Source of the DNA: Bacteroidales bacterium
GTDB taxonomy: Bacteria; Bacteroidota; Bacteroidia; Bacteroidales; WCHB1-69
Reading direction: 5' to 3'
DNA length: 64,000 bases
Assembly: GCA_024682995.1 (NCBI GenBank)
Contig: JAIKYR010000071.1
Coordinates: forward strand, 17,883-81,882
Part shown: positions 43,787 to 60,900 of the stretch, piece by piece
How the letters are laid out: each line of letters starts with the position of its first letter
How positions within the stretch are numbered: the stretch's first letter is position 1
Notes under the pieces: generated by a model
Told to the model about the DNA's origin: nothing
Databases searched by the model: none
What the model saw: only the letters and a program-made list of their open reading frames with translations
Translations under genes and position numbers: made by a program

Positions 43787-44389
43787 TTATTTCCATTTAA
43801 AGGTGTTTGTAAACTGCATGAAATCCTCCCGCAGGTAGTCGATGACCGGCTGCAGGGAGTCATTGTTCGGGGTGAAGTTGAAATAGAGGGTGCCGCGCAG
43901 GAAATAGTGGGCGCTGTCCGTCATCCAGAAGATGAGCGGGGTGGCAACCTCTTTGCCTTCAATATCGTAAAACCGTCCCCAAAGACGGGCTTCAGGGTCC
44001 TGGATGACGGAGAATTCCACGTCATCAGCCTTCTGATAGTGGAATTTCACCATTTTTTCCTCCCGAATCATCAGACTGCGCAGGCTGTCGGCCTTCGGCA
44101 CGGGGATGCACGTCAGCTTGAAGGCGGCGTTCAACTCGGGATAAGACATGTCAATCCAGCAGATTCCGTCTTTTTGGTCGCGGATGGACAGGACAGACTG
44201 ATCCGATTGGTCGAAAGTGAAGGGTAGGGTGGTATCCGTATGTCGGTACTGTCGTTCGGGGAGGTCAATGCGGAAATAGCCGACCGGTTTCGGGGTCGGC
44301 ACATCACGGTGACGGCAGGAGGCTGCCGTCACACATAATCCCATCAGAAAAGCCACAACCACAAGAAGATGCCGTTCAGGACCTCTCAT
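43787..44389 (-). CDS. gldD: Gliding motility lipoprotein GldD
   Basis: Lipobox LCVTAASC; PKPVGYFRIDLPERQY start typical of GldD. Confidence 0.75.
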   Translation of the reverse strand: MRGPERHLLVVVAFLMGLCVTAASCRHRDVPTPKPVGYFRIDLPERQYRHTDTTLPFTFDQSDQSVLSIRDQKDGICWIDMSYPELNAAFKLTCIPVPKADSLRSLMIREEKMVKFHYQKADDVEFSVIQDPEARLWGRFYDIEGKEVATPLIFWMTDSAHYFLRGTLYFNFTPNNDSLQPVIDYLREDFMQFTNTFKWK

Positions 44390-44395
44390 GGCGGA

Positions 44396-45256
44396 CTACA
44401 GATAGCTTTTCAGGTTCTTGTTCTTGCTGTTCTGGCGCAAGCGTTTCAGGGCACGCTCCTTGATCTGGCGCACGCGCTCGCGGGAGAGCTCCATCCGGTC
44501 GCCAATCTCATCCAGCGTGTGCTCGTGTGAGGTGTTGATGCCGTAGAAAAGCATCAGCACTTCGCGCTCCTTCTCGGGCAGCGTGTTCAGCACATCGTGG
44601 ATTTCCGATGCTAATGATTCCTGCATCAGGATGGTGTCCGTATCCTCGTCATTGTCGTGGACGAAAATATCCACAAAGCGAGTCTCCTCATTCGGGGAAA
44701 TCGGCGAGTCGATGGACTGCGGATGGTTGTTCATCTTCATAATCTCCGACACCTTATATACCGGCATGTCAATGGCTTCCGCAATCTCCTCCGTGGTGGG
44801 GATACGTTTCAGCTTTTGTTCCAGACGGGCAGTTTCCTTCTTGATTTTGTTGATCACACCCACCTGGTTGAGCGGCAGACGCACAATGCGCGACTGGTCG
44901 GCGATGGCTTGCAGGATGGACTGGCGGATCCACCACACGGCGTAGGAGATGAACTTGAACCCGCGGGTCTCATCGAATCGCTTGGCTGCCTTGATCAGGC
45001 CCACGTTGCCCTCGTTGATGAGGTCCTGAAGACTGATGCCCTGGTTCTGGTATTGCTTGGCCACCGAGACCACAAAACGCAAGTTGGTGGTAGTCAGCTT
45101 GTTCAACGCCTCTTCGTCGCCGGCCTTGATCTTGCGGGCCAGTTCGACTTCTTCTTCCGCTGTGATCATCTGCTCCTTGCCAATATCGGCCAGATAACGG
45201 TCAAGAGAAGCGGAATCACGGTTGGTGATGGATTTGGAGATTTTAAGTTGTCGCAT
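44396..45256 (-). CDS. rpoD: Primary RNA polymerase sigma factor (sigma-70 / SigA)
   Basis: YAVWWIRQSI, TLDEIGDRMELSRERVRQIKERALKRLR. Confidence 0.9.
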   Translation of the reverse strand: MRQLKISKSITNRDSASLDRYLADIGKEQMITAEEEVELARKIKAGDEEALNKLTTTNLRFVVSVAKQYQNQGISLQDLINEGNVGLIKAAKRFDETRGFKFISYAVWWIRQSILQAIADQSRIVRLPLNQVGVINKIKKETARLEQKLKRIPTTEEIAEAIDMPVYKVSEIMKMNNHPQSIDSPISPNEETRFVDIFVHDNDEDTDTILMQESLASEIHDVLNTLPEKEREVLMLFYGINTSHEHTLDEIGDRMELSRERVRQIKERALKRLRQNSKNKNLKSYL

Positions 45257-45325
45257 ATAGAAATTTTCTTATAATCGTTTGATTTTGTGAATATTATATA
45301 ATGTAAAAAGCTTTTGGGCTTTCTT

Positions 45326-46450
45326 TTATCTTGGATTTTTTTCAAACAGCTCCTTTGTACCCTTATTATTTAATAAAGTTACAAGTTTGTTGAATTTTTC
45401 TTTATTTCGAACGATACTTACGTTGACCACATCGCCCGGGGATTTGGTTTTGAGCACGCCGCGCACCTCCGCGAGGCTGTTCACGGGTGTGCCGCCGATA
45501 TGGGTGATCACGTCGCCGGCCTGCAAGCCGCTTTGGGCCGCCGCGCCTTCATCATCCACTTCCGCCACATATACGCCGCGCACATCTTCCAAATCGTACT
45601 CTTTTGCCAGTGAGGCGTTCAGCTCGGCAATGGAGACGCCGATGTAGGCTTGCTGCACCTGACCATATTCTTTAATATCGAGGTATATCTTCTTCACGAT
45701 GTTGGACGGGATGGCGAACGAGTAGCCGGTATAGTATCCGTTGCCGGAGGCGATGGCCGTGTTGATGCCCACTAAACGGCCCGAGGCGTTCACCAATGCG
45801 CCGCCGGAGTTACCGGAGTTGACAGCCGCATCCGTCTGCAAATAAGACTCTTCCGTCTGGCTTCGCCCGGAGAGCGCCAGCTGCCGCGCTTTGGCGCTGA
45901 TGATGCCCGCGGTGACGGTGGAGGTCAGATTCATGGGATTGCCCACGGCCAGCACCCACTCGCCGATGCGCACCTCATCAGAGTTGTCGAACTCCAGGTA
46001 GGAGAGCCCCTCCGCATTGATTTTCAGCACGGCGAGGTCCGTTTTCGGGTCCGTACCCACAATGGTGCCCTCGTATTCGCGCTTGTCGTTCAGCGTCACC
46101 GTGACCTTCACGGCATCCTCCACCACATGGTTGTTGGTGACGATGTAGCCGTCGGAGGTGACGATGACCCCGGAGCCCGCCGCCTGCACCGGATAGGTGC
46201 TCGGCCTTGAACCGAAAAAGTGCTCCCATATAGTGCCCCCGAAAAACTCATCCCAAGCTGAATTTTTCTGCATAAATTCCGTTTTTATATAGACCACAGC
46301 ATTCACAGAACGCTCGGCGGCGGTGGTCAAATCAACATAGACGGGTCCTTTGGAGGAAGTTTGAGCCTGAATCCCAGTGGGAGTTAGAAATGCGAGTATA
46401 GTACTGACAAACAGTATTTTAATAAATTTTTTTAACATCATTTCCATCAT
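45326..46450 (-). CDS. HtrA/Do-like trypsin-fold serine protease with one PDZ domain
   Basis: TNNHVV, DLAVLKI, GNSGGALV catalytic triad contexts; C-terminal PDZ; exact start uncertain. Confidence 0.85.
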   Translation of the reverse strand: MMEMMLKKFIKILFVSTILAFLTPTGIQAQTSSKGPVYVDLTTAAERSVNAVVYIKTEFMQKNSAWDEFFGGTIWEHFFGSRPSTYPVQAAGSGVIVTSDGYIVTNNHVVEDAVKVTVTLNDKREYEGTIVGTDPKTDLAVLKINAEGLSYLEFDNSDEVRIGEWVLAVGNPMNLTSTVTAGIISAKARQLALSGRSQTEESYLQTDAAVNSGNSGGALVNASGRLVGINTAIASGNGYYTGYSFAIPSNIVKKIYLDIKEYGQVQQAYIGVSIAELNASLAKEYDLEDVRGVYVAEVDDEGAAAQSGLQAGDVITHIGGTPVNSLAEVRGVLKTKSPGDVVNVSIVRNKEKFNKLVTLLNNKGTKELFEKNPR

Positions 46451-46530
46451 ATTTTTCTAATAAAAGCCATACAATAACGAATATGTTTAAAAAAAATTGC
46501 AAGGACAGGATACGGATTATGATTTTTTTT

Positions 46531-46538
46531 TATTTTTG
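46531..46538 (+). promoter_or_regulatory. -7 promoter box for rplU-rpmA
   Basis: TATTTTTG, 37 nt upstream of ATG 46575. Confidence 0.55.
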
Positions 46539-46574
46539 CAGCCCAAAATTTTTAATCAAAAAAACAGTAAAAAA

Positions 46575-46886
46575 ATGTACGCAATTGTAGAAATAGCCGG
46601 GCAACAGTTCAAGATTGAAAAAGACCGCCGCGTCTATGTTCAACGCCTCAAGGCTGAAGAAGGTTCACAGGTGAAATTCGACCGTGTGATGTTAGTGGAC
46701 AATGACGGTTCTGTCAAAGTTGGAACGCCCACCGTGGATGGTGCTGCCGTTACCGCTACCGTTGTCAAACACCTTAAAGGTGACAAAGTTCTTGTTTTCA
46801 AGAAGAAAAGAAGAAAAGGATATCAGAAATTGAATGGCCACCGTCAGAATCTGACCGCCATCAAAATTGATGATATTACGTTGTAA
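46575..46886 (+). CDS. rplU: 50S ribosomal protein L21
   Basis: [22 protein letters not shown]. Confidence 0.95.
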
Positions 46887-46918
46887 TTCAGTATTAACGA
46901 AACATAATTTAAAAAGAT

Positions 46919-47176
46919 ATGGCACATAAAAAAGGTGTCGGTAGTTCACAGAACGGCCGCGAATCACATAGCAAAAGATTAGGTTTGAAAATCTTCGGTG
47001 GTCAGTTTGCAAAAGCTGGCAACATCATCGTCCGCCAAAGAGGCACTGTCCACAATCCGGGACAGAATGTCGGCATGGGCAAGGATCACACCCTCTACGC
47101 CCTTTGCGACGGTATCGTCTCCTTCCGCAAAACCTACAAGGATAGATCATTTGTATCCGTTATTCCTCAGGAATAA
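46919..47176 (+). CDS. rpmA: 50S ribosomal protein L27
   Basis: [22 protein letters not shown]. Confidence 0.95.
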
Positions 47177-47216
47177 TCGATAAGGTGATATTTTGTTCAT
47201 AATGTTTGATTTTGAG

Positions 47217-47248
47217 AGCCGTTCTTCCCGAACGGCTTTCTTTTTTTC
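47217..47248 (+). terminator. Rho-independent terminator after rpmA
   Basis: AGCCGTTC/GAACGGCT stem followed by a T-rich run. Confidence 0.8.
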
Positions 47249-47249
47249 G

Positions 47250-47257
47250 TATTTTTG
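47250..47257 (+). promoter_or_regulatory. -7 promoter box for holA
   Basis: TATTTTTG, 24 nt upstream of ATG 47281. Confidence 0.5.
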
Positions 47258-47280
47258 CGGCTCCACATTCGACATCGGAT

Positions 47281-48354
47281 ATGATTAAATACGAAGACCT
47301 TACAAAACAGCTCAAAGCCGGACAGTTCAAGCCCGTATATCTGCTTCACGGCGAGGAGCCTTTTTATATTGATCGCATCTGCTCCTTCTTTGAGAACAAT
47401 GTGCTGGACGAGGCCGACCGCGACTTCAACCAGTCCGTCCTGTACGGGAAGGATGTCACTGTGGCCGATGTGCTCGCCAATGCCAAGCAGTTCCCGTTCG
47501 GCGCACCCTATCGTGTTGTCATCCTGAAGGAGGCAAAAGATCTGTTCAATCTTAAAGGGTCCAAAAAATCAGCCAAGGAAGAGGAAAACGAGACTTTGGA
47601 CGAGTTGGATTCTTCCAAGGAAGACAAAGGTTCGGCGGAATTCGCGCAGCTGCAAGCCTATGCGAAAGAGCCCACCCAGTCCACCATCCTGGTGATCTGC
47701 TACAAATACAAGAAGCTTACGGTCGCCCAGTGCAAACCCTTTGAACAACATGGCGAGGTTTTTCTGTCGGAGGGCGAAAAGGACTGGAATTTGTCCAAGT
47801 GGATTCTGAAGCAGGCCGGCCGTTTCCACTTCACGATGGACGACGCCACCGCCACGCTGTTAGCGGAGCACATTGGCAACGACTTGTCGCGCATATACAG
47901 CGAGTTCGAGAAGTTACGCGTAATCCTGCCCAACGGCGGCACCCTCACCCCCGATGTTGTGGAAAAATATATCGGTATCAGCAAGGAGTACAACATCTTT
48001 GAGTTGCAGGATGCCTTGGGCAACCGCAACGAGCCGAAAGCCTACAAGATCACGCTGAACTTTGCGCAGCATCTGAAGGACAATCCCAACGTGAAAACCA
48101 TCCTGATGCTGTTTCGTTTTTACAACAACATGCTCCGCTACCATCTGTCGCCCGACAAAAACTCCGATACCGGCAAGAAAATATTCGGGAATTTGGCTTT
48201 CCGGATGGTGCCCATGGCCCAGAAGCACAGTATCGCGCAACTCACCCGCATCATATCCCTGCTGCGCGAATATGACATGAAGAACAAAGGTTTGGACAAC
48301 AACTGTGAGGAGGGCGAGCTTCTAAAAGAGCTGATTTACAAGATTCTGCATTAG
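47281..48354 (+). CDS. holA: DNA polymerase III delta subunit
   Basis: ORF 47206-48354; ATG 47281 follows the terminator and -7 box; FKPVYLLHGEEPFYID N-terminus. Confidence 0.8.
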   Translation: MIKYEDLTKQLKAGQFKPVYLLHGEEPFYIDRICSFFENNVLDEADRDFNQSVLYGKDVTVADVLANAKQFPFGAPYRVVILKEAKDLFNLKGSKKSAKEEENETLDELDSSKEDKGSAEFAQLQAYAKEPTQSTILVICYKYKKLTVAQCKPFEQHGEVFLSEGEKDWNLSKWILKQAGRFHFTMDDATATLLAEHIGNDLSRIYSEFEKLRVILPNGGTLTPDVVEKYIGISKEYNIFELQDALGNRNEPKAYKITLNFAQHLKDNPNVKTILMLFRFYNNMLRYHLSPDKNSDTGKKIFGNLAFRMVPMAQKHSIAQLTRIISLLREYDMKNKGLDNNCEEGELLKELIYKILH

Positions 48355-48439
48355 AGTTGGGCTTTAGCCATTGGCTATTGGCTGTTAGCTATTGGGAGTT
48401 GGGGATTGGGATTTGTGGTTTACGATTTGCGTTTTTCGG

Positions 48440-48756
48440 TTCCCGGTTCTCTGTTCCCGCCCCTAACGCCGTCAGGCGTTGCAGATCTGTAGGAATAGGG
48501 CCGCCGCATGGACAGCAAGTGCGATGTGCACCATTCCGCCAGCGACGACAGGAGCGGCGGAATCTCCCCACGTCCCGATCAGATTTTTTCCAACTTTTTG
48601 GGTACAGTTTACAAAACATCCCCGTCAGGGGATGCATATCTGTAGCCCAAGGCGTTCCCGCGAGAGGCATAAATCCCCGTGAGGGGATTCATTTGACAAT
48701 ATGGGCGGCGGCGGTTCATCGGCGGTGGTTTTGGAGTGGCGAAAATACGAAAAATC
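48440..48756 (-). repeat. GC-rich hairpin-module repeat R1 (terminal copy, no toxin tip downstream)
   Basis: Hairpins AACGCC-GTCA-GGCGTT, CATCCCC-GTCA-GGGGATG, AATCCCC-GTGA-GGGGATT; the 48618-48756 part aligns with R2 and R3. Confidence 0.7.
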
Positions 48757-48837
48757 CGAATATGACGGAGGCCTCCACCTCCTTGCCGTTGATGTAGATG
48801 GCTACCTTGCGGGTGTAAATCGTTTCCGGGACCAATA

Positions 48838-49278
48838 TCAACGAAAGACACGGGATGCGGTAAAATAACAATATATATATTCAGTTTTTTCGTCCAGCGA
48901 TGGTACATAGTTTACCTTTATACGAAACCCATTATCTTTCTGATACTCAGTAAGGTGTATCTCAGTAGTAGGCGCGGAGAGGGACGCACTTTTTAAAATG
49001 TTGTTGATATTAAATTGTATTATCTCAGACAATTTGGATTTTAACTTAATCCAACATTCCATTTTAGAAACACTTGGAACTAAAATATCATTATCAACGA
49101 GACACCATATAGAATCTTTCTTTATTTCAAGTTCGAGCGAAACAAAATAATCGACTGTATCAGTATTATAAATCATAAACGAAACGTCTCCAGTTTTGTT
49201 ACAATATAGCTTGTCAACAACAATTTGCCCTGCTAAATAAAAAGGGGATAGCATAATAATTATAAGTATTTTTTTCAT
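48838..49278 (-). CDS. Putative immunity protein 3 (exported, 146 aa)
   Basis: ATGA overlap with the upstream toxin stop; signal peptide MKKILIIIMLSPFYLAGQ; AT-rich. Confidence 0.6.
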   Translation of the reverse strand: MKKILIIIMLSPFYLAGQIVVDKLYCNKTGDVSFMIYNTDTVDYFVSLELEIKKDSIWCLVDNDILVPSVSKMECWIKLKSKLSEIIQFNINNILKSASLSAPTTEIHLTEYQKDNGFRIKVNYVPSLDEKTEYIYCYFTASRVFR

Positions 49279-50057
49279 TCCGTTATTACCGTCTTTTTGG
49301 TACCACCATTAGTATTGTGATCTGGACCAGGGTACTCTATTATAACATCAATTTTTGAATTATCATCCCCATATTCCATCAAATCGTTGAAAAATTCTTT
49401 TTCTATCTCTATGCAACCGTGGGTAAATCCCTTTTCTGAATCATGTATGTAGAAACTATTATTGTCTCGATTTGAAGCTCCTGTAACCGAAACGGGCTCT
49501 AGTTTTGCACGATGTTTTCCCCATTCTGAATACGTACAATAATGTCCATCTTCTCTTTGATAATAATCAGGGATTTTTTCAATTCCACCCTCGGGTGAAC
49601 GCAATAATTGCCCTGTTTTGGGATCCGCATTTGCTATTCTATTAGGATCAGGCTTCAAATTAATATAATATTGTCCTTCTGGGGTTGGCCCTCCATTTCT
49701 TACATTTTGATATTTAGCATATTGGCAATCAATTATGGCTCCAGTAGTGGTTGTCGCGTTATTTAGTCCCGAAGTGGCTTTGTAGGTGTGAATCAAATTG
49801 CTCTTGTCTCCAACTTCGCCTCCATACCAAAGAGCGGCATTCCCAGTGACAAGCACCCAATCTTGTCCATCAAAGTCAATTAGCTTCACCGGGTTGTCCG
49901 CGCAATACACATACGGACTCAAAGATGGATATTTGTCACTCATCGGATCCACACTCAACCAGATGCTTAAATCGCTGCTGTAATATCTTGAACCGAAGTA
50001 GGATAGACCCGTTTCAGTGTCTTTCTCTTTTGCGGAGAAGGTGAAAGTCCAGCGGAC
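49275..50057 (-). CDS. Orphan Rhs tip 3: conserved core end plus Tlde1/DUF2778-like (L,D-transpeptidase-fold) toxin domain; start unresolved
   Basis: Homology to the main Rhs begins at VRWTFTFSAKEKDTETGLSYFGSRYYSSDLSIWLSVDP (50057). Toxin part has GPTPEGQYYI, WGKHRAKLEP and FYIHDSEKGFTHGCIEI. There is no ATG inside the conserved block. Confidence 0.6.
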   Translation of the reverse strand, partial: VRWTFTFSAKEKDTETGLSYFGSRYYSSDLSIWLSVDPMSDKYPSLSPYVYCADNPVKLIDFDGQDWVLVTGNAALWYGGEVGDKSNLIHTYKATSGLNNATTTTGAIIDCQYAKYQNVRNGGPTPEGQYYINLKPDPNRIANADPKTGQLLRSPEGGIEKIPDYYQREDGHYCTYSEWGKHRAKLEPVSVTGASNRDNNSFYIHDSEKGFTHGCIEIEKEFFNDLMEYGDDNSKIDVIIEYPGPDHNTNGGTKKTVITE

Positions 50058-50423
50058 AGGGGGCAGGGGACAGGGAATGGTGAGTGAATGGGCGAGGGAA
50101 TGCGTTTTGATGGCTGTAAACCACCAGCCATCCCCATGAGGGGATGCAGCTCGGTAGCAAAGGGTTACGATGTGTGTCCCAAAAATCCCCGATAGGGGAT
50201 TCACCGCGAAGGATTGCAGGTGGCGGCATACGGCGCGCCCTTGCCCGTCCGTTTGTGCGTTGGCAACGGGATGTTGTGCCGCCCCTCCGGGGCTTGGGGT
50301 GCGGGCGGGGTGCCTCGTCCTACCGCGCTTGCGCCCCCTGCGGGGCGCGGTGGACGCAATCGACGGGCAATATGTGAGGGTAGTAGGCATAGCGGTTTTG
50401 ATGGGGCGAAAATAGGGAAAAAC
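50058..50423 (-). repeat. GC-rich hairpin-module repeat R3, abutting orphan tip 3
   Basis: CATCCCC-ATGA-GGGGATG, AATCCCC-GATA-GGGGATT, GCGCCCC-CTG-CGGGGCGC; 50058-50200 aligns closely with 52150-52300. Confidence 0.7.
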
Positions 50424-50446
50424 ACAATTGGATCATCATAGGATTA

Positions 50447-51319
50447 TCATAGGATAGAACTTTCGCTTTTCATATCGTTATTCTGTTTGCTTCTCCATTG
50501 TCTAATGAGCCTATAAGTACTCCGATCAAGGGCTTTCTTTTCACCTCGTTTTTGATCTTTGAAAATTCTCCCTTTAGTGTCATAATAGATTTTTTTTGTC
50601 AGTTTACCCGCCCGATAATAGTAAATGCATTGAAGTCCATTGTGTTTTTTCTTCGTATAGAAATCATAAACAGTATCTTTCAATCCATTTGTATATATTG
50701 TTGTCGTCTCCAGTATCCTTTGATAGTTGTAAATGTTTTCTTTGTACAAGGTGTTGTTCTTATAGTATTGGACTAGGCTGTCAACAAAACAATAAGCGGC
50801 ATCTATTATGGTGTCGAATTTCGCATAATAATTCCAAATGGGCTGGTTAAAGCCCACATAGGATGTGTCATAATCGAACTTGTCCGAGAGATATCTGTCC
50901 GGATAGTTCAAATCTTCTTCGCCATTCACATAGAGAAGTTGTGTCAACATTTCTCCGCCTGCTGAATAGCTTTTGACAAATCCGTCCACGACTCCCAGTT
51001 TGTATGAAACCTCTCCACGCAACCGACCGTCAGGCCAATACTCTTTTGAAACGCCATCCTCCAAACCATCTTTGTAACTGATGGTTTGAATGAGCTTGCC
51101 TGTCTTGAAATTATAACTGGTATCGGACAACTCACGTCCCATATCGTACACCGTTTTCTTCATCAAGATAGTATCCTTATCTACCACCTTGGCAATAACA
51201 AACCAATTACCGTGTGGTAATCCACCCACGAGTTGGTTGTGCAGATTGTTCAGCCCGGTCACAGGTTGTCCGAACAGCAGGGTCGGAAAGAATCCTAAAA
51301 GAAATAATACTTTCTTCAT
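50447..51319 (-). CDS. Putative immunity protein 2: exported MORN/YwqK-like repeat protein
   Basis: ATG 51319 gives signal peptide MKKVLFLLGFFPTLLFGQ; repeats such as YWPDGRLRGEVSYKLGVVDGFVKSY. Confidence 0.65.
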   Translation of the reverse strand: MKKVLFLLGFFPTLLFGQPVTGLNNLHNQLVGGLPHGNWFVIAKVVDKDTILMKKTVYDMGRELSDTSYNFKTGKLIQTISYKDGLEDGVSKEYWPDGRLRGEVSYKLGVVDGFVKSYSAGGEMLTQLLYVNGEEDLNYPDRYLSDKFDYDTSYVGFNQPIWNYYAKFDTIIDAAYCFVDSLVQYYKNNTLYKENIYNYQRILETTTIYTNGLKDTVYDFYTKKKHNGLQCIYYYRAGKLTKKIYYDTKGRIFKDQKRGEKKALDRSTYRLIRQWRSKQNNDMKSESSIL

Positions 51320-51345
51320 ATTCTGTTTGCTTTTCCTCAATTGAA

Positions 51346-52149
51346 TTATCTCATCCGAACATGTTTTTTGTGAGTACGATAATCAGAGACCCTTGCAACT
51401 GGCCTTATGTCTAATCTTCTTGAGCGCAATGTTACTGAAAACTTCCAATTATCTTGTCTTTTATCAGTGAGCCTGTTTTGTATGCAATACGAAATAGAAC
51501 GGGCATCACCAACTTCCAAATTATAAGAGAAAGAATTACCCTCAGGAGAGTTAATCCATCCTGTTTCTACTTTATCAGCAGCGATGAATGTAGCGTAATT
51601 TTCTACCCCGTACGGATTAAAATCAATTTCAGCAGCATAGACATCTGGTCCCACTGGGATTTCACCACATACAATCATTTCTTGATTGTCGGCTCTATTC
51701 TTAACATTGATTATTTTTTTTGTTTCACTAAATACTTTAATATCTACTATTTCTTCGCCATCCCAATAAGTATTATCCTTGCTTTGATATTTTCGTCGAA
51801 GCTGTTTTTGATATTTATTAGACAAGGTAACAGCTTCGGATTCTAACTCGTCAGCACTTGCACCATTTTTAGCCATTTTCATCAATGGTGTTTTGATTTT
51901 TTTGTCAAAAAATTTTTTGATGCGTTTTGAAGGGTCTCCTCCGTCATACACCTCTTCCCCATTCGGATCCACCAACTTCACCGGGTTGTCCGCGCAATAC
52001 ACATACGGGCTTAATGACGGATATTTCGCAGCCTGCGGATCAACACTGAGCCAGATGCTCAAATCGGAGTTGTAATATCTTGAGCCAAAGTAGGAAAAGC
52101 CGGTTTCTGCGTCCTTTTCTTTTGCGGAGAAGGTGAAAGTCCAGCGGAC
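51346..52149 (-). CDS. Orphan Rhs tip 2: conserved core end plus unclassified toxin domain; start unresolved
   Basis: VRWTFTFSAKEKDAETGFSYFGSRYYNSDLSIWLSVDP...DPNGEE followed by about 200 aa of AT-rich unique sequence. Confidence 0.6.
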   Translation of the reverse strand, partial: VRWTFTFSAKEKDAETGFSYFGSRYYNSDLSIWLSVDPQAAKYPSLSPYVYCADNPVKLVDPNGEEVYDGGDPSKRIKKFFDKKIKTPLMKMAKNGASADELESEAVTLSNKYQKQLRRKYQSKDNTYWDGEEIVDIKVFSETKKIINVKNRADNQEMIVCGEIPVGPDVYAAEIDFNPYGVENYATFIAADKVETGWINSPEGNSFSYNLEVGDARSISYCIQNRLTDKRQDNWKFSVTLRSRRLDIRPVARVSDYRTHKKHVRMR

Positions 52150-52362
52150 AGGGGTCAGGGGACAGGGAACAGCAGGTGGGTGGGCAAGGGAATGCGTTTG
52201 GGTGGCTGCAAACCACCGACCATCCCCGCCAGGGGATGCAGCTCGGTAGCAAGGGGTTACGATGTGTGCCCCAAAAATCCCCGATAGGGGATTCATAAAA
52301 CGATATGGTCGGCAGCGGTGCATTGATGGGTGTTTTTGATGAGGCGAAGATATGAAAAAAAT
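52150..52362 (-). repeat. GC-rich hairpin-module repeat R2, abutting orphan tip 2
   Basis: CATCCCC-GCCA-GGGGATG, and AATCCCC-GATA-GGGGATT followed by a T-run on the minus strand (terminator-like). Confidence 0.7.
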
Positions 52363-52384
52363 ATTAAACAACCAAGCTGCAGTT

Positions 52385-53377
52385 TCAATAGTTAATTATA
52401 GTTGCTGGTATCAAGTATGGGGTACATAAGCCAACGATCATAAAGCCTGTATCTTTTTTGAGCACTTGAAATATTACCTCTTTCTGATGTAAACAAATCA
52501 TCCATTCTGTTTTGATAAGAATTGTATCGCCTTCAGCATACAAGATATTGATTTTTTTAGGTGATAATGGTTCCATCGTCTCTTCACAAAACAAGTGTTC
52601 CAATTCGCAAAAGTTATAAATTGTTTGCATCAAAGTACTTGTATCATATTTCTGTTGTCCATACTTTAGGTAATACCATTTAGTGACAATCCTTGATCCA
52701 TTTTTTGATGATGTTGTATATCTCTTGCCGATTTGGTATTTGTTAAATTGATCTGATAAGCACGAAAAGTCTGCATAGTTCCATACCGAATCTTTTTTAT
52801 TCGCAAGAGATAACATAAAAGAAGATAGGGCTGAAGCGAGTCCCAATGTGTCTAATGTCAAATCATCCGTGAACGGATTATCATTGAAAAATAGTCCCGA
52901 TATGTTTGGAGAGAGATACAATGGAACAATGGGGTCTTCTATAGGAATGCATAAAACACTATCGTATAACAATACATTAAGCGTTTGAGGGTAATGAAAA
53001 GAAGCGGCATATTCATTTGAATTATCAAAATAAGATCGGACTGCTAAAGTGTAAGTTTTATTGGTCTTTAATGGGGTACAACTCTCCATGTTGACTGAAG
53101 GGCTTTTGGTAGATAATATGGTGATTTTGGTTTTATGAGATTTCTGAATAGCAAAACCTCTCAACAAATATCCACCTGGAATCTTTATCGCTCTTACAAA
53201 TTTCACCTTATAAATTCTATTATCAGTTAGAGAATCTGAATGACTCAGGTGCAATTTTCCATTCGTTTTGATGTGTTGGGGATACAATAATCCTTCTGTA
53301 TGCGCCGACAAACATGTCAAACTCAAGAGCAAAGATAAGAAAAGCCGACATTTCTGAATCACAATTGACATTTTCAT
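52385..53377 (-). CDS. Putative immunity protein 1 (exported, 330 aa)
   Basis: ATGA overlap with the orphan tip 1 stop; signal peptide-like N-terminus; AT-rich; no family recognised. Confidence 0.6.
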   Translation of the reverse strand: MKMSIVIQKCRLFLSLLLSLTCLSAHTEGLLYPQHIKTNGKLHLSHSDSLTDNRIYKVKFVRAIKIPGGYLLRGFAIQKSHKTKITILSTKSPSVNMESCTPLKTNKTYTLAVRSYFDNSNEYAASFHYPQTLNVLLYDSVLCIPIEDPIVPLYLSPNISGLFFNDNPFTDDLTLDTLGLASALSSFMLSLANKKDSVWNYADFSCLSDQFNKYQIGKRYTTSSKNGSRIVTKWYYLKYGQQKYDTSTLMQTIYNFCELEHLFCEETMEPLSPKKINILYAEGDTILIKTEWMICLHQKEVIFQVLKKDTGFMIVGLCTPYLIPATIINY

Positions 53378-54552
53378 CGTGCGAAAATTTTGTTGAAAAT
53401 ATATCGTGCAGAAGGACTCTTATAATTCAGTTTTTGAGATGGGGACATTTCGTTTGGTGCCAGTGATGCATTATTGTGGGCTTGTAAATATTTTTTATAA
53501 TCCCGTGGATAGTCTGCTGTCCATAAATCTACAACATTAATTTTGAATTGCATGTTATTCAAACCTGTGGTTTCTGGAGGTTCCACTGGATGAAGAGATG
53601 CCTCCCTTATATTATGTCTTGTAGATATAGCTATTTCTCCTGCCATATATCCTTCTGTTGCTTCATGAATCATGCCTGATCCTGTTGGAGCATTATTTTC
53701 TTTCTCCAATTTTTGCATTGCTTGCACATTGACAGAATTTACAGAAACAGCAGTCCCATTTTTTTTATTATATGTGGTCCCCATGTAACTTCCTGCATTT
53801 CCTTTATCATCACATAAAACAATAGCGCACACAGATTTACTGTTAATTGCTTTTAACAACAGCTCGTCTGCTTCGGAAATGGCTTCTCCTTCAGCTGTGA
53901 TTTTTCCGAATCTTCCCATTGTTAATTTTAGATTGGTACCCTGCTGCATATTATGAAAAGCTGTTTTTGCATGCTTGCCAATCAGAAGCACGTCTTCCCC
54001 GTTCGGGTCCACCAACTTCACCGGATTATCCGCGCAATACGTGTAAGGCGAAAGCGACGGATATTTGTCACTCATGGGGTCCACGCTCAGCCAGATGCTT
54101 AAATCACTGCTGTAATACCGTGAGCCGAAATAGCTTAACCCGGTTTCCGAGTCGCGCTCTTTTGCGGAGAAGGTGTGCATGGCATGCCAGTTGGTTGTCC
54201 TCTGGTCAACAAAATCTTCACCCCAAGGGAGGTAGTGCAGGTGCTGCACGGCGGAGCCGTCGGTATAGGTTATCCAAGATGATGAACCGAGATGGTCGGG
54301 GTGGTACCAATAGGCTTCGCAGGTGTCTTTCTGACGATTGGTAAGGGCATTGAGGTAGGAAAGTTGCGCAGTGGTATCCGTGATGGCAGGGTTGAGCGCC
54401 AGCACGAGGCTGTCGGCGTGGCGCACTTTGCGGTTGGCCGAGACGATGTCCGTCACGGGCGTTGCCAGCGTGGAGAAATTGTCGCGACCAATCTGCGAGG
54501 TGATGCGCTCTTGGAATATCTCTAATTCTGCATGTTTGGAAGAATAATTCAT
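53374..54552 (-). CDS. Orphan Rhs tip 1: ATG-initiated 392-aa protein with Rhs core end plus unclassified toxin domain
   Basis: Residues 81-187 YWYHPDHLGSSSWITYTDGSAVQHLHYLPWGEDFVDQRTT...DPNGED are near-identical to the main Rhs; unique C-terminal 205 aa. Confidence 0.7.
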   Translation of the reverse strand: MNYSSKHAELEIFQERITSQIGRDNFSTLATPVTDIVSANRKVRHADSLVLALNPAITDTTAQLSYLNALTNRQKDTCEAYWYHPDHLGSSSWITYTDGSAVQHLHYLPWGEDFVDQRTTNWHAMHTFSAKERDSETGLSYFGSRYYSSDLSIWLSVDPMSDKYPSLSPYTYCADNPVKLVDPNGEDVLLIGKHAKTAFHNMQQGTNLKLTMGRFGKITAEGEAISEADELLLKAINSKSVCAIVLCDDKGNAGSYMGTTYNKKNGTAVSVNSVNVQAMQKLEKENNAPTGSGMIHEATEGYMAGEIAISTRHNIREASLHPVEPPETTGLNNMQFKINVVDLWTADYPRDYKKYLQAHNNASLAPNEMSPSQKLNYKSPSARYIFNKIFAR

Positions 54553-54556
54553 TGGG

Positions 54557-54898
54557 TTATCTCTTCATTTCAGGGTCTTCGTGATTAAGAGTACGACACG
54601 CACACATTTTTTTGCATATTACTTTTGAAACAAATTGTATTATAAATAGCGTTAACTCTGACAAAGTAGCCGGTATATTGACAAAGCCAATTAACATAAC
54701 ATCTTTCATTGGAACAATGCGCCAAAAAAACAAAGATAAAATTATAGATATAATAAATGCAACAATAAGCACCAAAAAGGAGGAAAAACTCGCTTTGCCA
54801 ATTAGCAAGAATCTGACAAGAGCCCCTATTAAATACACTATTGATCCTAAATAAATTTGGAGTAAGAAAATATCGAAATAAGAATAATACACATTCAT
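54557..54898 (-). CDS. Putative immunity protein of the main Rhs toxin (small polytopic membrane protein)
   Basis: ATG 54898, 12 nt after the Rhs stop; several hydrophobic helices (IVYLIGALVRFLLI, FLVLIVAFIISIILSLFFW, LSELTLFIIQFV). Confidence 0.6.
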   Translation of the reverse strand: MNVYYSYFDIFLLQIYLGSIVYLIGALVRFLLIGKASFSSFLVLIVAFIISIILSLFFWRIVPMKDVMLIGFVNIPATLSELTLFIIQFVSKVICKKMCACRTLNHEDPEMKR

Positions 54899-54910
54899 GG
54901 TAAATAACAC

Positions 54911-57900
54911 TCATTCTTTGACTGGGTCATACGTAATTTTAGTGAATTTTTTTTGGTACTCTTTAATTATGCTTACGGGTCGAGGATCAAGAATCACGGG
55001 GGCTTTCTTTTTCACTTCTGAATCCTGCTTGATTACATCATCTGCGAAAGTCCCACAATTATTAAAAAACATACTATAGCTTCTTCTTTTCGGATCGCTA
55101 TTTTCATTTAGTTTTTGCTTGGCATAATCATCCATTTCCTTAAATTTATCACTTTCAACATAGGCACCTTCAATTCTTCCTCTTTGTCCTGCTTTATTTG
55201 AAATTTGCTTTAAGACTTTATTTAAGGATTCTTGCGTCGGCTTACCATCTTTCCCAATCTTTACATTTGAGATAGTGATTTTTCGAACCTCTCCTTTTCC
55301 TTCTTTGTCGTATCGTCCATATTCATAATATTTTGTCAGCCCTGTTTTATTGTCAATCAAAAGAACGCCAGCGTGGCCTAAATGCTTATATTTCTTTTTA
55401 CCTACAGTAATTTCATAGTCTGGGAATGCAATATACACCGCATCTTCACCATCAGGATCAAATAAGACAACAGGGCTGTTTTTACAGTAAACATACGGGC
55501 TCAGGGAGGGATATTTCGAGGCCATCGGATCAACGCTCAACCAGATGCTCAAATCACTACTATAATATCTTGAGCCAAAGTAAGAATAACCGGTTTCAGA
55601 GTCCTTTTCTTTCGCGGAGAAGGTGAACATGGAATTGAACGAGGTTGTGCGCTGGTCCACAAAGTCCTCGCCCCAAGGCAGGTAGTGCAGATGCTGCACG
55701 GCGGAGCCGTCAGTGTAGGTTATCCATGAGGAGGAACCGAGATGGTCGGGGTGGTACCAGTAGCAGTCGGGTTCGGTCTGCACCTGTTCACGCCAATAGT
55801 CGCGCAGGTCGAGCAGACGGTTCTCCTCCACGGAAGGGTTGGCGTTCAAACATCCCATCACATCGCCCAAATGAAGATTTGTATTTTCCTTTTTCATAGC
55901 ATAATACGAGAACAATTCTTCCATGTCACCCCACGGGATAGGATCTTCAAGGAAGGTCCATGCCACAGTGTCCTCTATAACATATTCATTTTGCAGCATG
56001 AAGTCCACATTGTCCAGCACCTGGGACACTTCCGCCAGCCCGCCACCGCCTATTCGGCTGGCCACACGTTCGCTTTCCGCGTAATAATGTTTTGTATAGC
56101 CCTGCGGGGTGGCCACCAGATAGGGCGATGTGTACAGTGTAGGGTTATCCAGCATATTATACGACCACCAGTTCCCCTGCACGTTCTGCGCCACAAAACC
56201 GCCCGTTAGTTTATACGTGCGCTCACCGTCCGCATCATATTGGTAGAAGCCCGCGTTGTGGCAGTCGGAGAAGCCCATGAGACGGTTCTCCTCGTCCCAG
56301 CAAAGAAGACGTGCACAACCCGGTTCGAAATCATGGTGGTCGGTCATGTTACCCGCCGCATCCCAGTAAAAATACTGATGGTGCCCCGTAAGAACGTCTC
56401 TTACAACTTTCAAGGTGTTGGGCTGGGCGGAATGATACAGGTAGCTTTTTTCGTAGTCGGTTACAGTGACAGCTCCGGAGTGGTCCATCACCTCGGCGTA
56501 CAGTTCCTTGCGTTCAATCCGTCCATTGGGATGGTACAGCATGTTCAGATTGTAGTTGAGCTGTCCTCCGTTCCAGAATCCTTCCGCATGTTCCAGCCGA
56601 TAGAGGTTGTCATAGTCGTAATGGTTCCAATAGTCCCCGCCAAGCCCGTTGGACAGCACGCCCGCATTGTTGAGGATGTCGGTGATGTTGCCCACGCTGT
56701 CGTATGAATAGTCTATTTCTTGCATCACCTCCCCCTGCCCGTTCTCGCTGTTTAGATGCAAGAGGCGCATCAGCATGTCGTACTGGTAGTAGGTGTGTGC
56801 GCCGTTGCCGTATAAAACGGTCTCCTTAAGTCCGTAGGTGTTATATGAGATGTCCTCCACGTAGGTGCGGGCATCCCCGTTCTTGTTCCCGTGTATGCTC
56901 TGGAGCATGCCTCCCCGGTCGTAATGGTAAGCCACCTCCTCCCAGTCGGGATAGATCATGCGGCGTATGCGGTTCCAGCTGTCGTATTCGTAATTCATCC
57001 TAAAGGTGTATGTGCGGTATTCGTTAGGGAGCACAAAGATACGGATATTTTCGGTAAGCTCGCCCAGATTGCCGTACTTGAAGGTCTGGAGACCTGAACC
57101 GTCTTCCCGGATCATTACTTTCCCCGCACAGTTATCGGGAGCCCCCGGCCCACCGTACCAGTAGCGGACATTGTTGGCGGGATGGTCGGAGTACAACACG
57201 GATTGCAGGAAATTATACACGTATGCGTAGTCCACAGTCTGTCCGTTCCCGTTTATGTGCCTTGTCATATTGCCAGAAGGATCGTATTCGTAAACATCGT
57301 CGCCTGCATCGGGATGGTTTCGGTGGACCATGCGCCCCAGCATGTCGTAGTCGTAGGTTGTGGTGAAGCCGTCGGGGTCGGTGGAGGAGACAAGCCTTCC
57401 CAGCGGGTCGTACCCGAACAGCGTCACCGTGTTCTGCGGGGCGGTCGTCTTCAGCTGCTGGCCCAATCCGCCCTTCAGGGTGGTCACGGTGTTGCCCATC
57501 GGGTCAGTGACGGTGGTGCGAAAACAGGCCACCCCACCCGCCGCGCCGAAACCGTAGTCTGTCAAGGTCGTAAGGCCGTAGGGGACGGTCTGTGACACTG
57601 GCCTGTCGAGTATGTCGTAGGCGGTCACAGTGGCTGTGGTCGTGTCATGCTGCGGATTGTACAGGGGCGCGTAAACAGTGTCCTCCACAAACGGATGGTA
57701 CTGCGCCACCGTCCGTCCGAAGCAGTCATAGACCACCTTCCCTGTCACAAGGCTCTTCTCCTGTCCTCCCACTTCCGCGTCTTTCTTAGTCTGCAGCAGG
57801 CGGCCCAGACCGTCGGTGACAAGCGTGGTGCGGATGTCGTTGCCCGGATACTCCGGATCGTAGTGGTATGTGCAGGCGTATGAGACACCCTGTCCTGTCA

Positions 57901-60900
57901 TTCCGCGGAAATACGGGTGGTACTCCATCCGTATGGTGTATGGCACGGAATCTGCCAACTCATTGGGTGCAGTGATTGTGACGGTCCTGCCAAGGCTGTC
58001 ATACGCATACCGCATCTCATTGCCGTTGATGTCCATGGTCATTGTCGGCTTGCCAAAGCTGTAGTCATACTCTGCAAAGGAGGAAAAACCCAGTGACAAG
58101 TTGTCCACCTCCACAGGGTAGGCGTGGGCCGTGTTGTCATAACCGTACCCGTATTCCAGCCTCTGTCCGGACGCGTTTTCGGGCATGACGGCGTGCATGA
58201 GGTTTCCGTATATGTCATAGCCGAACTCGTATTCCGCATTTTGCGGATGGCAGACCTGCGTGAGCCTGACGAGATGTCCATGCGCGTCGTATTCAGCAAT
58301 GCGCTCCTGCAGCAGGCTCCCGTTGAAATCTTTTACAACAATTGTTTCTGGCAAAGATATGAGGTTGTGTCCCGGGCTGGGAATGTAGGAGATGTCGGCG
58401 GCGAAGTACTCGGCAATGTGGGAAGGGTTGTTCCAGCCGAGGCCGAAATGGATGTATCGGGTCACATTGCGTCGCGAGTCGTATTCGCGCTGCAGGGCGG
58501 TGGTGACGTGCGGCACGGAATCCCCCTCGTAATAGTTGCGTATCTCGGTCTCCCGGCATTTGTAAAGGAAGGCGGGACAGTGCTCGTATCCGGCAGGGAG
58601 GGTGTCGGCGGGGCGGGTCAGGTCGGCCATCACCACGTCGTAGAGTGTCTCCACGTACGGCCTTCCCGCGGCATCATAGACGCACTCTCGTGTCTTGCGC
58701 CCGCGCCTGCTGAACTGCATGTTCTCATATTCCTCTACTGTATAGCGGTACAGGCTGTCGTTGTTCTCCGTGTCGTGCTGGCGGGTTGTCACCTTGCCGT
58801 AACCGTAGTCCATGCGCTCACGACGGTTGTGGTTTGGATTGTCGTATCTGAATGTGGTGAGTGTGCGGTTGCCTCCCACGGGACTGAGCGTGTCGCTGTT
58901 GAGGGTCTCCACGCGTGCAAGGTTCCAGCTGCGCTGGGGCTTTTCGTAACAGGAGGGCGGCATGTCATAGTCCAGCTCGATGGTGCTTCCCGTGAAGTTG
59001 GTGACCCTGCGCAGCAGGTTCGTCTTCGCAGAACGGTTGTACCGCACTGTCATGCCGTCTTCCGAGGAAGATGTCACAAGGTCGGGGTACCCGTCCCCGT
59101 TGATGTCGGTGAGCTGCACGCTGTCCTTGCTGAAGGAGCGGTTGTAAGGGGATCCCGAGATGCCCGCGCAGACCTTCAGTATGCTGAAGAAGGTGAACCC
59201 CAAGGTCACGGAGGCGTTGGCGGACTCGCTGTAGGAGTGCCCGTAGCTGATATCGGACATGCCCGCGACGGCGGTTTCGGGCGACCAGTATCCGTTCCCG
59301 TAGGCATAGCGGACCTTGATAATGCCGTTGCCCGTGCGGACGAGGAGGTCGGGCAGCCCGTCGCCATTGAAGTCCGTCAGCATGGTGTCTGTGGCGTTCC
59401 GGGAGAGGTTCACGCCAAGCCCGCCGCCGATGCTGGCCTGGCCGATATTGAAGCTTCCGCCCATGCTCAAACCCCAGTTGAAGCTTTGTCCCGCACGTAT
59501 GGCAGGAATGTTCCAGATCTCCTCTGGAAGGAATCCATAGCCCGTATTCAGGCACACTTTCAGCACGGATCCCGCCACTGAAGCCCTGTCGGGCAGGCCG
59601 TCGCCGTTCACATCCATCCAAAGGAAGGAGGTTCTGTCGCTGCCGCCGCCCAGATTGGCCCCTGCGTTTCCAGCCCCGTCAAAGCTGATCTTGGAGCCCC
59701 TCGGGCTATTGGACACGCATCGGGACGGGGTGGAATAGCTTCCTCCAAAGTTTGCCCCTCTGGAAAGGGTGGCCGAGGATGTCACGCCCTCTTCCGCGAA
59801 TTTCAGCGGCCTGACGGAGCCGATGCCGCCCCACGGCTGCGAATACTGCACGTATGCCGGTCCTATGATGTCGGGATAGCGGTCGCCGTTCAGGTCCATG
59901 TAGTCGGTGAGCACGATGTTCACCCCCTCCGACCTGGACACTCCGACCGATATCGGCATTACCGGAATGGACAGGCTCAGGGAATGGTTCTTCATGACGG
60001 AGATGTTCTGTTTCCTCACAGTCTTCACCTGCAGGCCGGCGGGGACCACAGGCACGGGATGGTCATAGTCGGCTATGTCGGACGTGTTCGTGTCGCAATA
60101 GAACCCGGCAAGGCGCGTGTTGCTCATGGTGTCGCGGAGAATCGCGCAGGTGTTCCCGAACCCGACCCAGGCCTGGTGCCGGAAATCGGGCTCCATTTCC
60201 ACCCATCCCGTGGATGCGGAGAGCGGATGGTATGCCCCTGCACTTTCGTAGGCGTTAAGTATGCTCGAACTCTCCTGTGCGTGCGCGGTGTCCTGGCAGG
60301 GCACGAAAGACCCGATGGCACTCGTGTCGCCTGTCGCCTGGGCTGCATCCGACGGATGGACGGACGCAGGGAGTACAAGCCGTTCCACCGGGAGGGTGCC
60401 CGACCCTCCAGCACCGGATGTGTCATGGAACACAAACTGCCCCCAGCCCCGATACAGGGGGCCGAAAAGTCGGTGGTGAAGAGTGTCTATGGCGGTGCCT
60501 TTCATGTTGTCCAGCAGCATTTGCACCGGAGGATGGCACTCTAAAGTGTCATGGGTGACCACCAGGATGCCACGGGTCACTGTGTCGGACACGGCGTATC
60601 GCACACAGGGGGAAACAGACACCTCCCCCCAGTCATACAGGCAAGAGTAGTAGCTGCTGATGAAATGGTTGTCCGAGCTGAGTGTGAACCGGACCGTTGC
60701 CGAATCCTTTTCCCGCACAGAGAGGAAGTGCCCGAGATCCCACGTTGAGTCCATGTTGTTGACAACAGGGATTATATACGGGGTGGTCAGTCCGCTTTTT
60801 GTAATCTCGATTGTGAGGCTTGCCGGGTTTTGTCCGACGGGAAGCCTGTAGAACTGCCCCGTCCTTATCCTCACGGACGGGCGGATGGATTGCGGCAGGG

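Follow-up and report, generated by a model that had tools for sequence, protein, structure and literature searches.

The DNA analysed here, hereafter the window, is a 64-kb stretch of a rumen Bacteroidales genome (contig JAIKYR010000071.1). It carries a main Rhs gene and, 3' of it, an array of three minus-strand modules, each composed of an orphan Rhs tip and a candidate immunity gene. We read this array, with a probability of about 0.75, as the tail of a polymorphic-toxin locus in which the main Rhs gene is accompanied by three spare tip/immunity cassettes, two of which look self-expressed, and in which cassettes are exchanged by recombination at the Rhs core end. A plain orphan array is of an ordinary, known kind. 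What appears to set this one apart from known orphans is a conserved, frame-maintained, hairpin-bearing leader, or a short form of it, which gives two of the three orphans the appearance of autonomous expression units. A first-pass annotation had placed three such modules, with Rhs cores and unrelated AT-rich tips, behind a full-length Rhs gene. All six open reading frames (ORFs) are present on the minus strand, intact and exactly where it had located them, and the cores are recognized by the TIGR03696 model.

According to the scenario that we favor, the main gene would encode a Sec-exported, fused TcB/TcC-type Rhs shell ending in a TseH-like tip and would be followed by a membrane-protein immunity gene. 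Cassette 1 would be a classical displaced C-terminal fragment of another Rhs allele. Cassettes 2 and 3 would belong to a widespread leader-type class, in which the last ~59 core codons are fused in frame to a non-Rhs leader supplying a Bacteroidetes −7-like box, an ATG, and a double hairpin resembling repetitive extragenic palindromes (REP). Leader-type cassettes would each be transcribed and translated on their own. This independent expression would mainly keep the overlapping or closely following immunity gene on, making the array an immunity reservoir, and the intact tip would be kept as stock. Tips would move onto and off full-length Rhs proteins by recombination in a core-end block of ~177 nt, mostly between genomes on an evolutionary time scale and not as a fast switch within a strain.

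The leader element of the orphan cassettes

The Rhs repeat-associated core model TIGR03696 aligns with orphan 1 over positions 1–75 (E 2.8e-18) and with orphans 2 and 3 only over positions 16–75/76 (E 1e-15). In the latter two, Rhs homology starts at ..TFSAKEKD. The first-pass annotation was right to locate this start at VRWTFTFSAKEKD but not to describe the orphans as beginning abruptly there, as a conserved in-frame leader precedes the homology and both ORFs remain open 5' to leader ATGs. Nor is orphan 1 the only orphan with an ATG of its own, as had been proposed: leader ATGs are located at 52321–52323 for orphan 2 and at 50388–50390 for orphan 3.

The leader is a repeated non-Rhs element of ~150–390 nt, in frame with orphans 2 and 3. 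It comprises a T-rich box, TAT(C/T)TTCG, an ATG lying 17–21 nt past the end of the box (26–30 nt from its start), and two perfect hairpins, AATCCCCnnnnGGGGATT and CATCCCCnnnnGGGGATG, with a start-to-start spacing of 55 nt. The six ATCCCCnnnnGGGGAT hairpins are the only ones in the window, for a chance expectation of 0.26. The orphan 2 leader (52132–52366, minus strand, as are all the copies) has its box, TATCTTCG, at 52345–52352, hairpin 1 at 52276–52293, and hairpin 2 at 52221–52238. The orphan 3 leader (50040–50428) has its box, TATTTTCG, at 50407–50414, and its hairpins at 50184–50201 and 50129–50146. The latter copy contains a GC-rich in-frame insertion of ~170 nt (50205–50385) with extra palindromes such as GCGCCCCGCAGGGGGCGC at 50331–50348; the same insertion is found in L016, L023, L080, and L107, L-numbers designating comparison loci from rumen Bacteroidales metagenome-assembled genomes (MAGs) and metagenome contigs.

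A toxin-less terminal copy of the leader (48617–48770) follows the last immunity gene, with a box at 48740–48747, an ATG at 48717–48719, and hairpins at 48672–48689 and 48617–48634. Its ORF ends two codons past hairpin 2, and its homology to the other leaders stops at 48617, the end of that hairpin. A degenerate hairpin-2-like element, AACGCCnnnnGGCGTT followed by the conserved GCAnATCTGTAG, was read by eye at 48464–48493 on the same strand. Two of its stem pairs are altered on both sides with pairing retained, and the element is probably what is left of an earlier terminal leader. The ~55 nt located 5' of the terminal leader (48775–48830; ..ATCTACATCAACGGCAAGGAGGTGGAGGCCTCCGTCATATTCGGA..) hold the palindrome GGAGGCCTCC. 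As this stretch is also conserved 5' of leaders in another genome (RGIG9679; L011), the repeat unit seems to reach further 5' in some copies. An Rfam search of positions 44000–56000 (E up to 1) gave no RNA family. On folding of the orphan 2 leader RNA (z = −1.1), both hairpins form and no significant larger structure was obtained. The possibility that the leader is the N-terminus of a full-length Rhs protein was ruled out, as the main protein of L055 begins with a signal peptide (MKQYLL...).

By exact-pattern scans, we detected the double hairpin in 15 MAG loci of rumen Bacteroidales and in 82 loci from metagenomes; the latter include a few unrelated palindromes. In 75 cases, the leader lies directly 5' of a (Y/H/F)TFSAKE(K/R)D...DPNGE core end and a diverse tip (230–285 aa). 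The length of the hairpin-1-to-F segment is a multiple of three in 59 of 62 unique leaders and in 17 of the 20 distinct length classes. Read in the toxin frame, 61 of the 62 segments contain no stop; the two alternative frames give stop-free counts of 8 and 16. Substitutions in the leader are distributed about equally among the three codon positions (446:386:408), and the neighboring core end displays a third-position excess (396:261:854). These lengths and the lack of stops show that the reading frame of the leader is maintained, and the flat substitution profile shows that its peptide sequence is not conserved. A profile search with the leader peptide retrieved 36 short ORFs only, with no longer protein and no Pfam family among the matches.

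The hairpin stems are near-invariant, even at synonymous sites, and their loops, in gene orientation, read TNNC. Part of this uniformity of the stems reflects ascertainment, since copies were retrieved with a pattern in which the stem sequence was set. Variants are mostly single stem-weakening changes and, apart from the remnant at 48464–48493, provide no clean compensatory pairs. The double hairpin is also present at intergenic sites unrelated to Rhs in L003, L013, L045, L056, L064, and L097. Two of these sites adjoin small convergent ORFs (99 and 111 aa in L013; 129 aa in L045), and L056 carries two copies 1381 nt apart. Given its presence in such unrelated places, the double hairpin behaves like a REP-type dispersed palindrome that the cassette leader has incorporated in frame.

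A TAnnTTYG sequence is located 26–30 nt 5' of the ATG in 46 of 67 leaders. A second class of cassettes has a short leader, M(N/S)Q(R/H)F.. plus ~12 codons, often with TAnnTTTG, and the start regions of the hairpin-leader and short-leader classes are visibly related. We take TAnnTTTG to be the canonical Bacteroidetes −7 motif and, on this assumption, assign the leader box as −7-like.

Exchange of modules at the core end

Modules of the window were found with other partners in several loci. The rumen metagenome contig L054 carries four leader-type orphans behind an Rhs gene end. The fourth has the TseH-like tip of the window's main gene (93.8% amino acid identity) and its membrane immunity protein (94.9%), followed by an orphan-1-type start. 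Nucleotide homology between L054 and the window is 89.6% over 54019–55625 and stops at the FSAKEKD codons. L107 has the orphan 2 core end, its tip, and immunity candidate 2 unchanged over 551 codons (0 differences); they follow a short leader (MNQRITY..) and lie in a gene neighborhood different from that of the window. The sister strains L014/L078, L027, L055, and L077 match the window at 97–99.9% identity over the housekeeping flank and on as far as 50045, with the L077 sequence breaking off within the orphan 3 tip; past 50045, L014/L078, L027, and L055 diverge. The orphan 3 tip and immunity candidate 3 recur at 100% identity in L055, L027, L014, and L078. In L055 and L027, this identical Tlde1-like tip with immunity candidate 3 belongs to a 514-aa orphan with an extended Rhs core, which lies behind a 269-aa gene and a complete main Rhs of 3099 aa. 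The placement of the orphan 3 tip on the main gene in L014 was dropped, L055 and L027 locating it on this 514-aa orphan.

All three context changes have their breakpoint at the FSAKEKD codons, where the shared core end begins, as predicted by recombination within that block. A change of partners at the core end is supported by these breakpoints. Third-codon-position conservation around the FSAKEKD junction is no higher than in the rest of the core end, which does not indicate a special nucleotide site.

Several observations weigh against self-expressed cassettes that recombine at their core ends. With respect to expression, kinship among leaders could partly inflate the conservation of the frame. 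The −7 box of the leader mostly has a C where the consensus has a T, and the leader lacks a signal peptide. A scan for sigma-70 promoters and terminators revealed no enrichment, its models excluding Bacteroidetes promoters. With respect to exchange, the core ends within the window are 65–79% identical at the nucleotide level (65–76% between main gene and orphans), and the longest exact matches between main gene and orphans are 14–26 nt, a poor RecA substrate. With such weak homology within the strain, RecA-mediated switching as in Salmonella is not obviously favored. The L054 comparison, at 89.6% nucleotide identity, is between lineages and not between strains. Finally, no orphan tip (1–3) was seen on a full-length Rhs of the window's body type among the loci compared. 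The toxin switching put forward in the first-pass annotation is supported as a change of partner between genomes (L054, L107, and the sister strains); within this strain, switching into the main gene is conjectural.

The main Rhs gene, the tips, and their immunity candidates

The main Rhs gene (54911–64000, minus strand) is a partial ORF of 3029 aa cut by the window end. Its product combines SpvB, FG-GAP, TcdB_toxin_midN, and RHS repeats (Pfam); the core end is encoded at 55445–55621 and the TseH-like tip (E 5e-32) at 54911–55444. The ATG at the window edge (63998–64000) looks like the start of the ORF. The main protein of L055 (L055 3494–12793) extends 65 residues further at its N-terminus, where it has a Sec-type signal peptide, MKQYLLAIIAVLAAVILALS (MKQYLL...). 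By comparison with this sister-strain locus, ~65 N-terminal residues of the window protein, including a Sec-type signal peptide, would be encoded beyond 64000. The gene upstream of the main Rhs has a type IX secretion system C-terminal sorting domain at 25.2 bits, slightly below the 27-bit cut-off. Based on the L055 signal peptide and on this neighbor, the main Rhs is likely a Sec-exported protein of the TcB/TcC type, with no obvious character of a type VI secretion system (T6SS) effector. The main Rhs proteins of the window (55700–64000) and of L055 are 53.7% identical, and the DNA flanks on both sides are 96–99.9% identical; the entire 9-kb Rhs body has been exchanged for another between strains of one species.

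The candidate immunity gene of the main tip (54557–54910, minus strand) encodes a hydrophobic, multi-pass membrane-like protein of 113–117 aa; the protein beside the same tip in L054 is its 94.9%-identical counterpart. A 109-aa ORF (54585–54914) overlaps it in another frame and shares an ATGA overlap with the main stop codon. Both frames are equally kept in L054, with six changes each, and the sequence alone is not decisive. Tips and downstream genes have a GC content of 31–39%, compared with 57.5% for the Rhs body and ~50% for the housekeeping flank. The four tips are of different families (TseH-like, HExxE...H, unknown, and YkuD/Tlde1-like), and each is followed by a downstream ORF.

Orphan 1 (53374–54552, minus strand) has its own ATG (54550–54552), 4 nt past the preceding stop, and an extended core with ~120 aa of Rhs body, in agreement with the first-pass annotation. 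This segment derives from another Rhs allele and is 48% identical to residues 2710–2857 of the L055 main protein. A DPNGE motif (53995–54009) precedes the tip (53374–53994), which has an invariant H-E-x-x-E and a nearly invariant His. The structure of the tip was predicted with a predicted local distance difference test score (pLDDT) of 94.7 and a predicted template modeling score of 0.89; H110, E111, and E114 are invariant. Foldseek comparison with the PDB gave no significant match for this tip, just weak zincin/YbeY-like ones, and neither the orphan 1 nor the orphan 2 tip matched a Pfam, NCBIfam, or PDB sequence. Our guess is that the orphan 1 tip is a metal-dependent hydrolase, and its model may represent an undescribed toxin fold. 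Its homologs are mostly short proteins, a few being at the ends of long ones. Immunity candidate 1 (52385–53377, 330 aa) matched no family in Pfam/NCBIfam profile scans.

From its leader ATG, orphan 2 extends over 51346–52323 on the minus strand, with the core end at 51955–52131 and a tip of unassigned function at 51346–51954. The tip was modeled as two helices and a beta-sandwich (pLDDT 67), without a significant Foldseek match in the PDB, and all 28 of its homologs are ≤350 aa. The description of immunity candidate 2 (50447–51319) as MORN/YwqK-like is borderline: the 50447–51340 product scores 28.7 bits for MORN_2, just below the Pfam cut-off of 29.6, and the identical L107 protein is faintly assigned to MORN_2.

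Orphan 3 extends from its leader ATG over 49275–50390 on the minus strand, with the core end at 49863–50039 and the tip at 49275–49862. The tip matches Pfam YkuD (29.1 bits, cut-off 23.4) and, under the cut-off of 30.1, Tlde1_dom (25.8 bits). It contains a THGC motif, the His...Cys of YkuD, in ..IHDSEKGFTHGCIE... Tlde1-like tips are preceded by DFDG (DFDGQ at 49863–49877 in the window) or DIDG (L063) and not by the canonical DPxG self-cleavage motif, which is present in 112 of 120 other cassettes. Immunity candidate 3 (48838–49278, 146 aa) is 100% identical in L014, L027, L055, L077, and L078.

All three orphan immunity candidates, encoded on the minus strand, have a short basic stretch followed by a hydrophobic stretch at their N-terminus, which is signal-peptide-like and compatible with the signal peptides reported in the first-pass annotation. 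The two ATGA toxin/immunity overlaps that it listed are likewise found at 53374–53377 (orphan 1) and 49275–49278 (orphan 3). Its suggestion that the toxins act on the periplasm or envelope stands for orphan 3, with its YkuD/Tlde1-like THGC tip. A periplasmic target is well supported by domain similarity for the main TseH-like tip and the orphan 3 tip; for orphans 1 and 2 it would follow from the signal-peptide-like N-termini of their immunity candidates. The ratio of nonsynonymous to synonymous substitution rates (dN/dS) amounts to 0.24 for both the orphan 2 tip and the TseH-like tip and to 0.11 for immunity candidate 2 (vs. L019). Judged by these ratios, the orphan tips and immunity genes are shown to be under purifying selection.

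Integrase islands, alternatives, and related systems

A Pfam scan of 109 flanking ORFs revealed a tyrosine recombinase (Phage_integrase, E 1.2e-22), divergent to cassette arrays, in L020, L033, L051, L080, and L087; a regular-expression search for tyrosine recombinases had missed these genes. The copies are 75–83% identical to the query copy (L051). On the integrase side, arrays start with a short-leader cassette with a canonical TAnnTTTG box, followed by hairpin-leader cassettes. L099–L102 encode a 76%-identical integrase in the order orphan array, integrase, LytTR regulator, DUF8202, and 3060-aa SpvB/RHS gene. In all these loci, the integrase is flanked by a second, divergent Rhs-tip/immunity array, upstream of the main Rhs. 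In L080, the start of this main Rhs is 93% identical to window positions 63163–64000. From this arrangement and identity, the window genome may carry an integrase just past the window end; no integrase homolog was found in the window. Relatives at ~45% identity are prophage integrases by context, and no link to the recombinase-associated acquired interbacterial defense (rAID) systems was established from them. Compared with L020 (10052–11902), L107 (9361–10100) has the start of its short-leader cassette in inverted orientation, immediately adjacent to a pair of hairpins. The L107 hairpins look like hybrids of hairpins 1 and 2 (AATCCCC....GGGGATG), which could reflect an inversion or a different island layout.

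In an integron- or rAID-like alternative, the island tyrosine recombinase would move cassettes via the hairpin leaders, and homologous recombination at core ends would be secondary. This mechanism would fit the conserved integrase divergent to such arrays in five loci and in L099–L102, and its position in L080 upstream of a main Rhs so similar to that of the window. It would also fit the closure of arrays by a toxin-less leader, the window copy of which loses homology exactly at the end of hairpin 2, and the near-invariance of the stems, synonymous sites included. Moreover, a recombinase, low-GC genes in a common orientation, and conserved motifs between them are the defining features of rAID (10.1101/471110; PMC12247911). 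However, all three context changes of the window modules break at FSAKEKD codons and none at hairpins; none of these breakpoints supports a recombinase-driven mechanism. The cassette adjoining the integrase has a short leader without hairpins, and the double hairpin also occurs at unrelated intergenic sites. The ~45%-identity relatives are prophage integrases, the window lacks an integrase homolog, and stem invariance stems partly from the search pattern. We therefore regard this alternative as unlikely. We give somewhat less credit to its extension, in which the hairpin leader would be the working part of a self-expressing, recombinase-serviced cassette system drawing on a shared pool of complete toxin and immunity units. 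Equally questionable is the corollary that these units, with promoter, start codon, and hairpin adaptor, would be shuffled between the two arrays and the tip of the giant Rhs. If true, such a system would be a counterpart of rAID that carries toxins and would reveal how arrays of this kind arise.

Even more doubtful is that leader-type cassettes encode autonomous small toxins made of the leader, the last Rhs repeat, and the tip, delivered alone or in trans with an Rhs shell. The promoter-like box, the ATG, the maintained frame, and the purifying selection on the tips would agree with autonomy, as would the orphan 2 tip family, which was found only in proteins of 111–350 aa, many starting at a leader ATG, and never in a long Rhs. 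Metagenome assemblies often fragment long Rhs genes, though, which makes absence from long proteins weak evidence. These putative toxins have neither a signal peptide nor a known secretion or loading domain, and the amino acid sequence of their leader evolves without codon-position bias and, as a search profile, leads to no longer protein and no Pfam family. That the modules are inert debris of past tip replacements, without present function, is highly improbable: orphans 2 and 3 do retain just the last part of the Rhs core, orphan 3 has DFDG in place of DPxG, and a degenerate leader remnant is present at 48464–48493, but all ORFs are intact, dN/dS values are 0.11–0.24, identical modules recur in different contexts in other samples, and 59 of 62 leaders preserve the frame.

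Our preferred reading, spare cassettes exchanged at the core end, has its closest parallel in the rhs orphans of enterobacteria. In Salmonella, the orphan rhs-CT/rhsI module STM0292 is 95% identical to the main gene over 522 bp, and enterobacterial rhs orphans "usually lack translation initiation signals" (PMC3967940). As in these bacteria, the tip and immunity pairs of the window are located 3' of a full-length rhs gene, co-oriented with it, and retain a piece of core whose shared sequence could join the tips to the main body. In contrast to Salmonella, two of the window orphans keep just ~59 core codons with 73–76% identity. Unlike most enterobacterial orphans, orphan 1 has an ATG, and orphans 2 and 3 possess a conserved leader of non-Rhs sequence, which supplies a promoter-like box, a start codon, and hairpins. 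The main protein also differs by its predicted Sec signal peptide and TcB/TcC-type domains, in place of a T6SS PAAR/VgrG context.

The main gene resembles the BC components of Tc toxins (TcdB2-TccC3, YenB/YenC2) in combining SpvB, TcdB_mid_N, FG-GAP, and RHS repeats, and a profile that covers the core end aligns with the C-termini of TccC3 and YenC2 in the PDB. Unlike those of Tc toxins, the window tips look antibacterial (TseH-like, Tlde1-like), and the immunity genes encode signal-peptide-like N-termini. Integrons consist of an intI gene with attI and the Pc promoter, and their cassettes end in a 3' attC. Like them, the window has co-oriented cassettes bounded by hairpin-forming repeats. The related islands also resemble integrons in having an integrase transcribed divergently from the array and in that the cassette nearest to it shows the best promoter match. 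However, the window hairpins are inside a 5' translated leader and are not a 3' attC, the breakpoints lie in the coding core end, the window has no integrase, and the integrase of the related islands is phage-integrase-like. REPs and the elements built from them (bacterial interspersed mosaic elements) are repetitive extragenic palindromes. The leader shares with them paired, short, GC-rich perfect hairpins with variable loops, dispersed intergenically in the same genome group, and differs in that the cassette hairpins are within a maintained reading frame.

Arrays of orphan immunity genes downstream of a recombinase, termed rAID-1, have been described in gut Bacteroidales (10.1101/471110; PMC12247911). 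They are characterized by a tyrosine recombinase homologous to BF9343_RS08045, co-oriented, short, low-GC (<41%) orphan immunity genes, and intergenic motifs. The window array belongs to the same order and likewise has co-oriented low-GC cassettes (31–39%) parted by a conserved repeat, the leader, in three copies. In related islands a dedicated tyrosine recombinase lies beside such arrays, and an immunity-reservoir role is proposed here as for rAID-1. Unlike rAID-1, the window cassettes are complete tip and immunity pairs behind a full-length Rhs, with no recombinase in the window. The layout recalls rAID, membership of which is not established.

Orphan Rhs modules are usually regarded as fragments without a start, silent until recombination activates them. 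The large class described here keeps a start region and a reading frame, and the islands that it occupies also encode a dedicated recombinase. Self-expression of these cassettes, if real, would explain how orphan immunity genes stay on. Self-expression would then also make the box, ATG, and double hairpin a sequence handle for finding cassettes in metagenomes. It would also offer a testable route to the assembly of rAID-like immunity arrays in Bacteroidales, the biogenesis of rAID having been called unresolved (PMC12247911).

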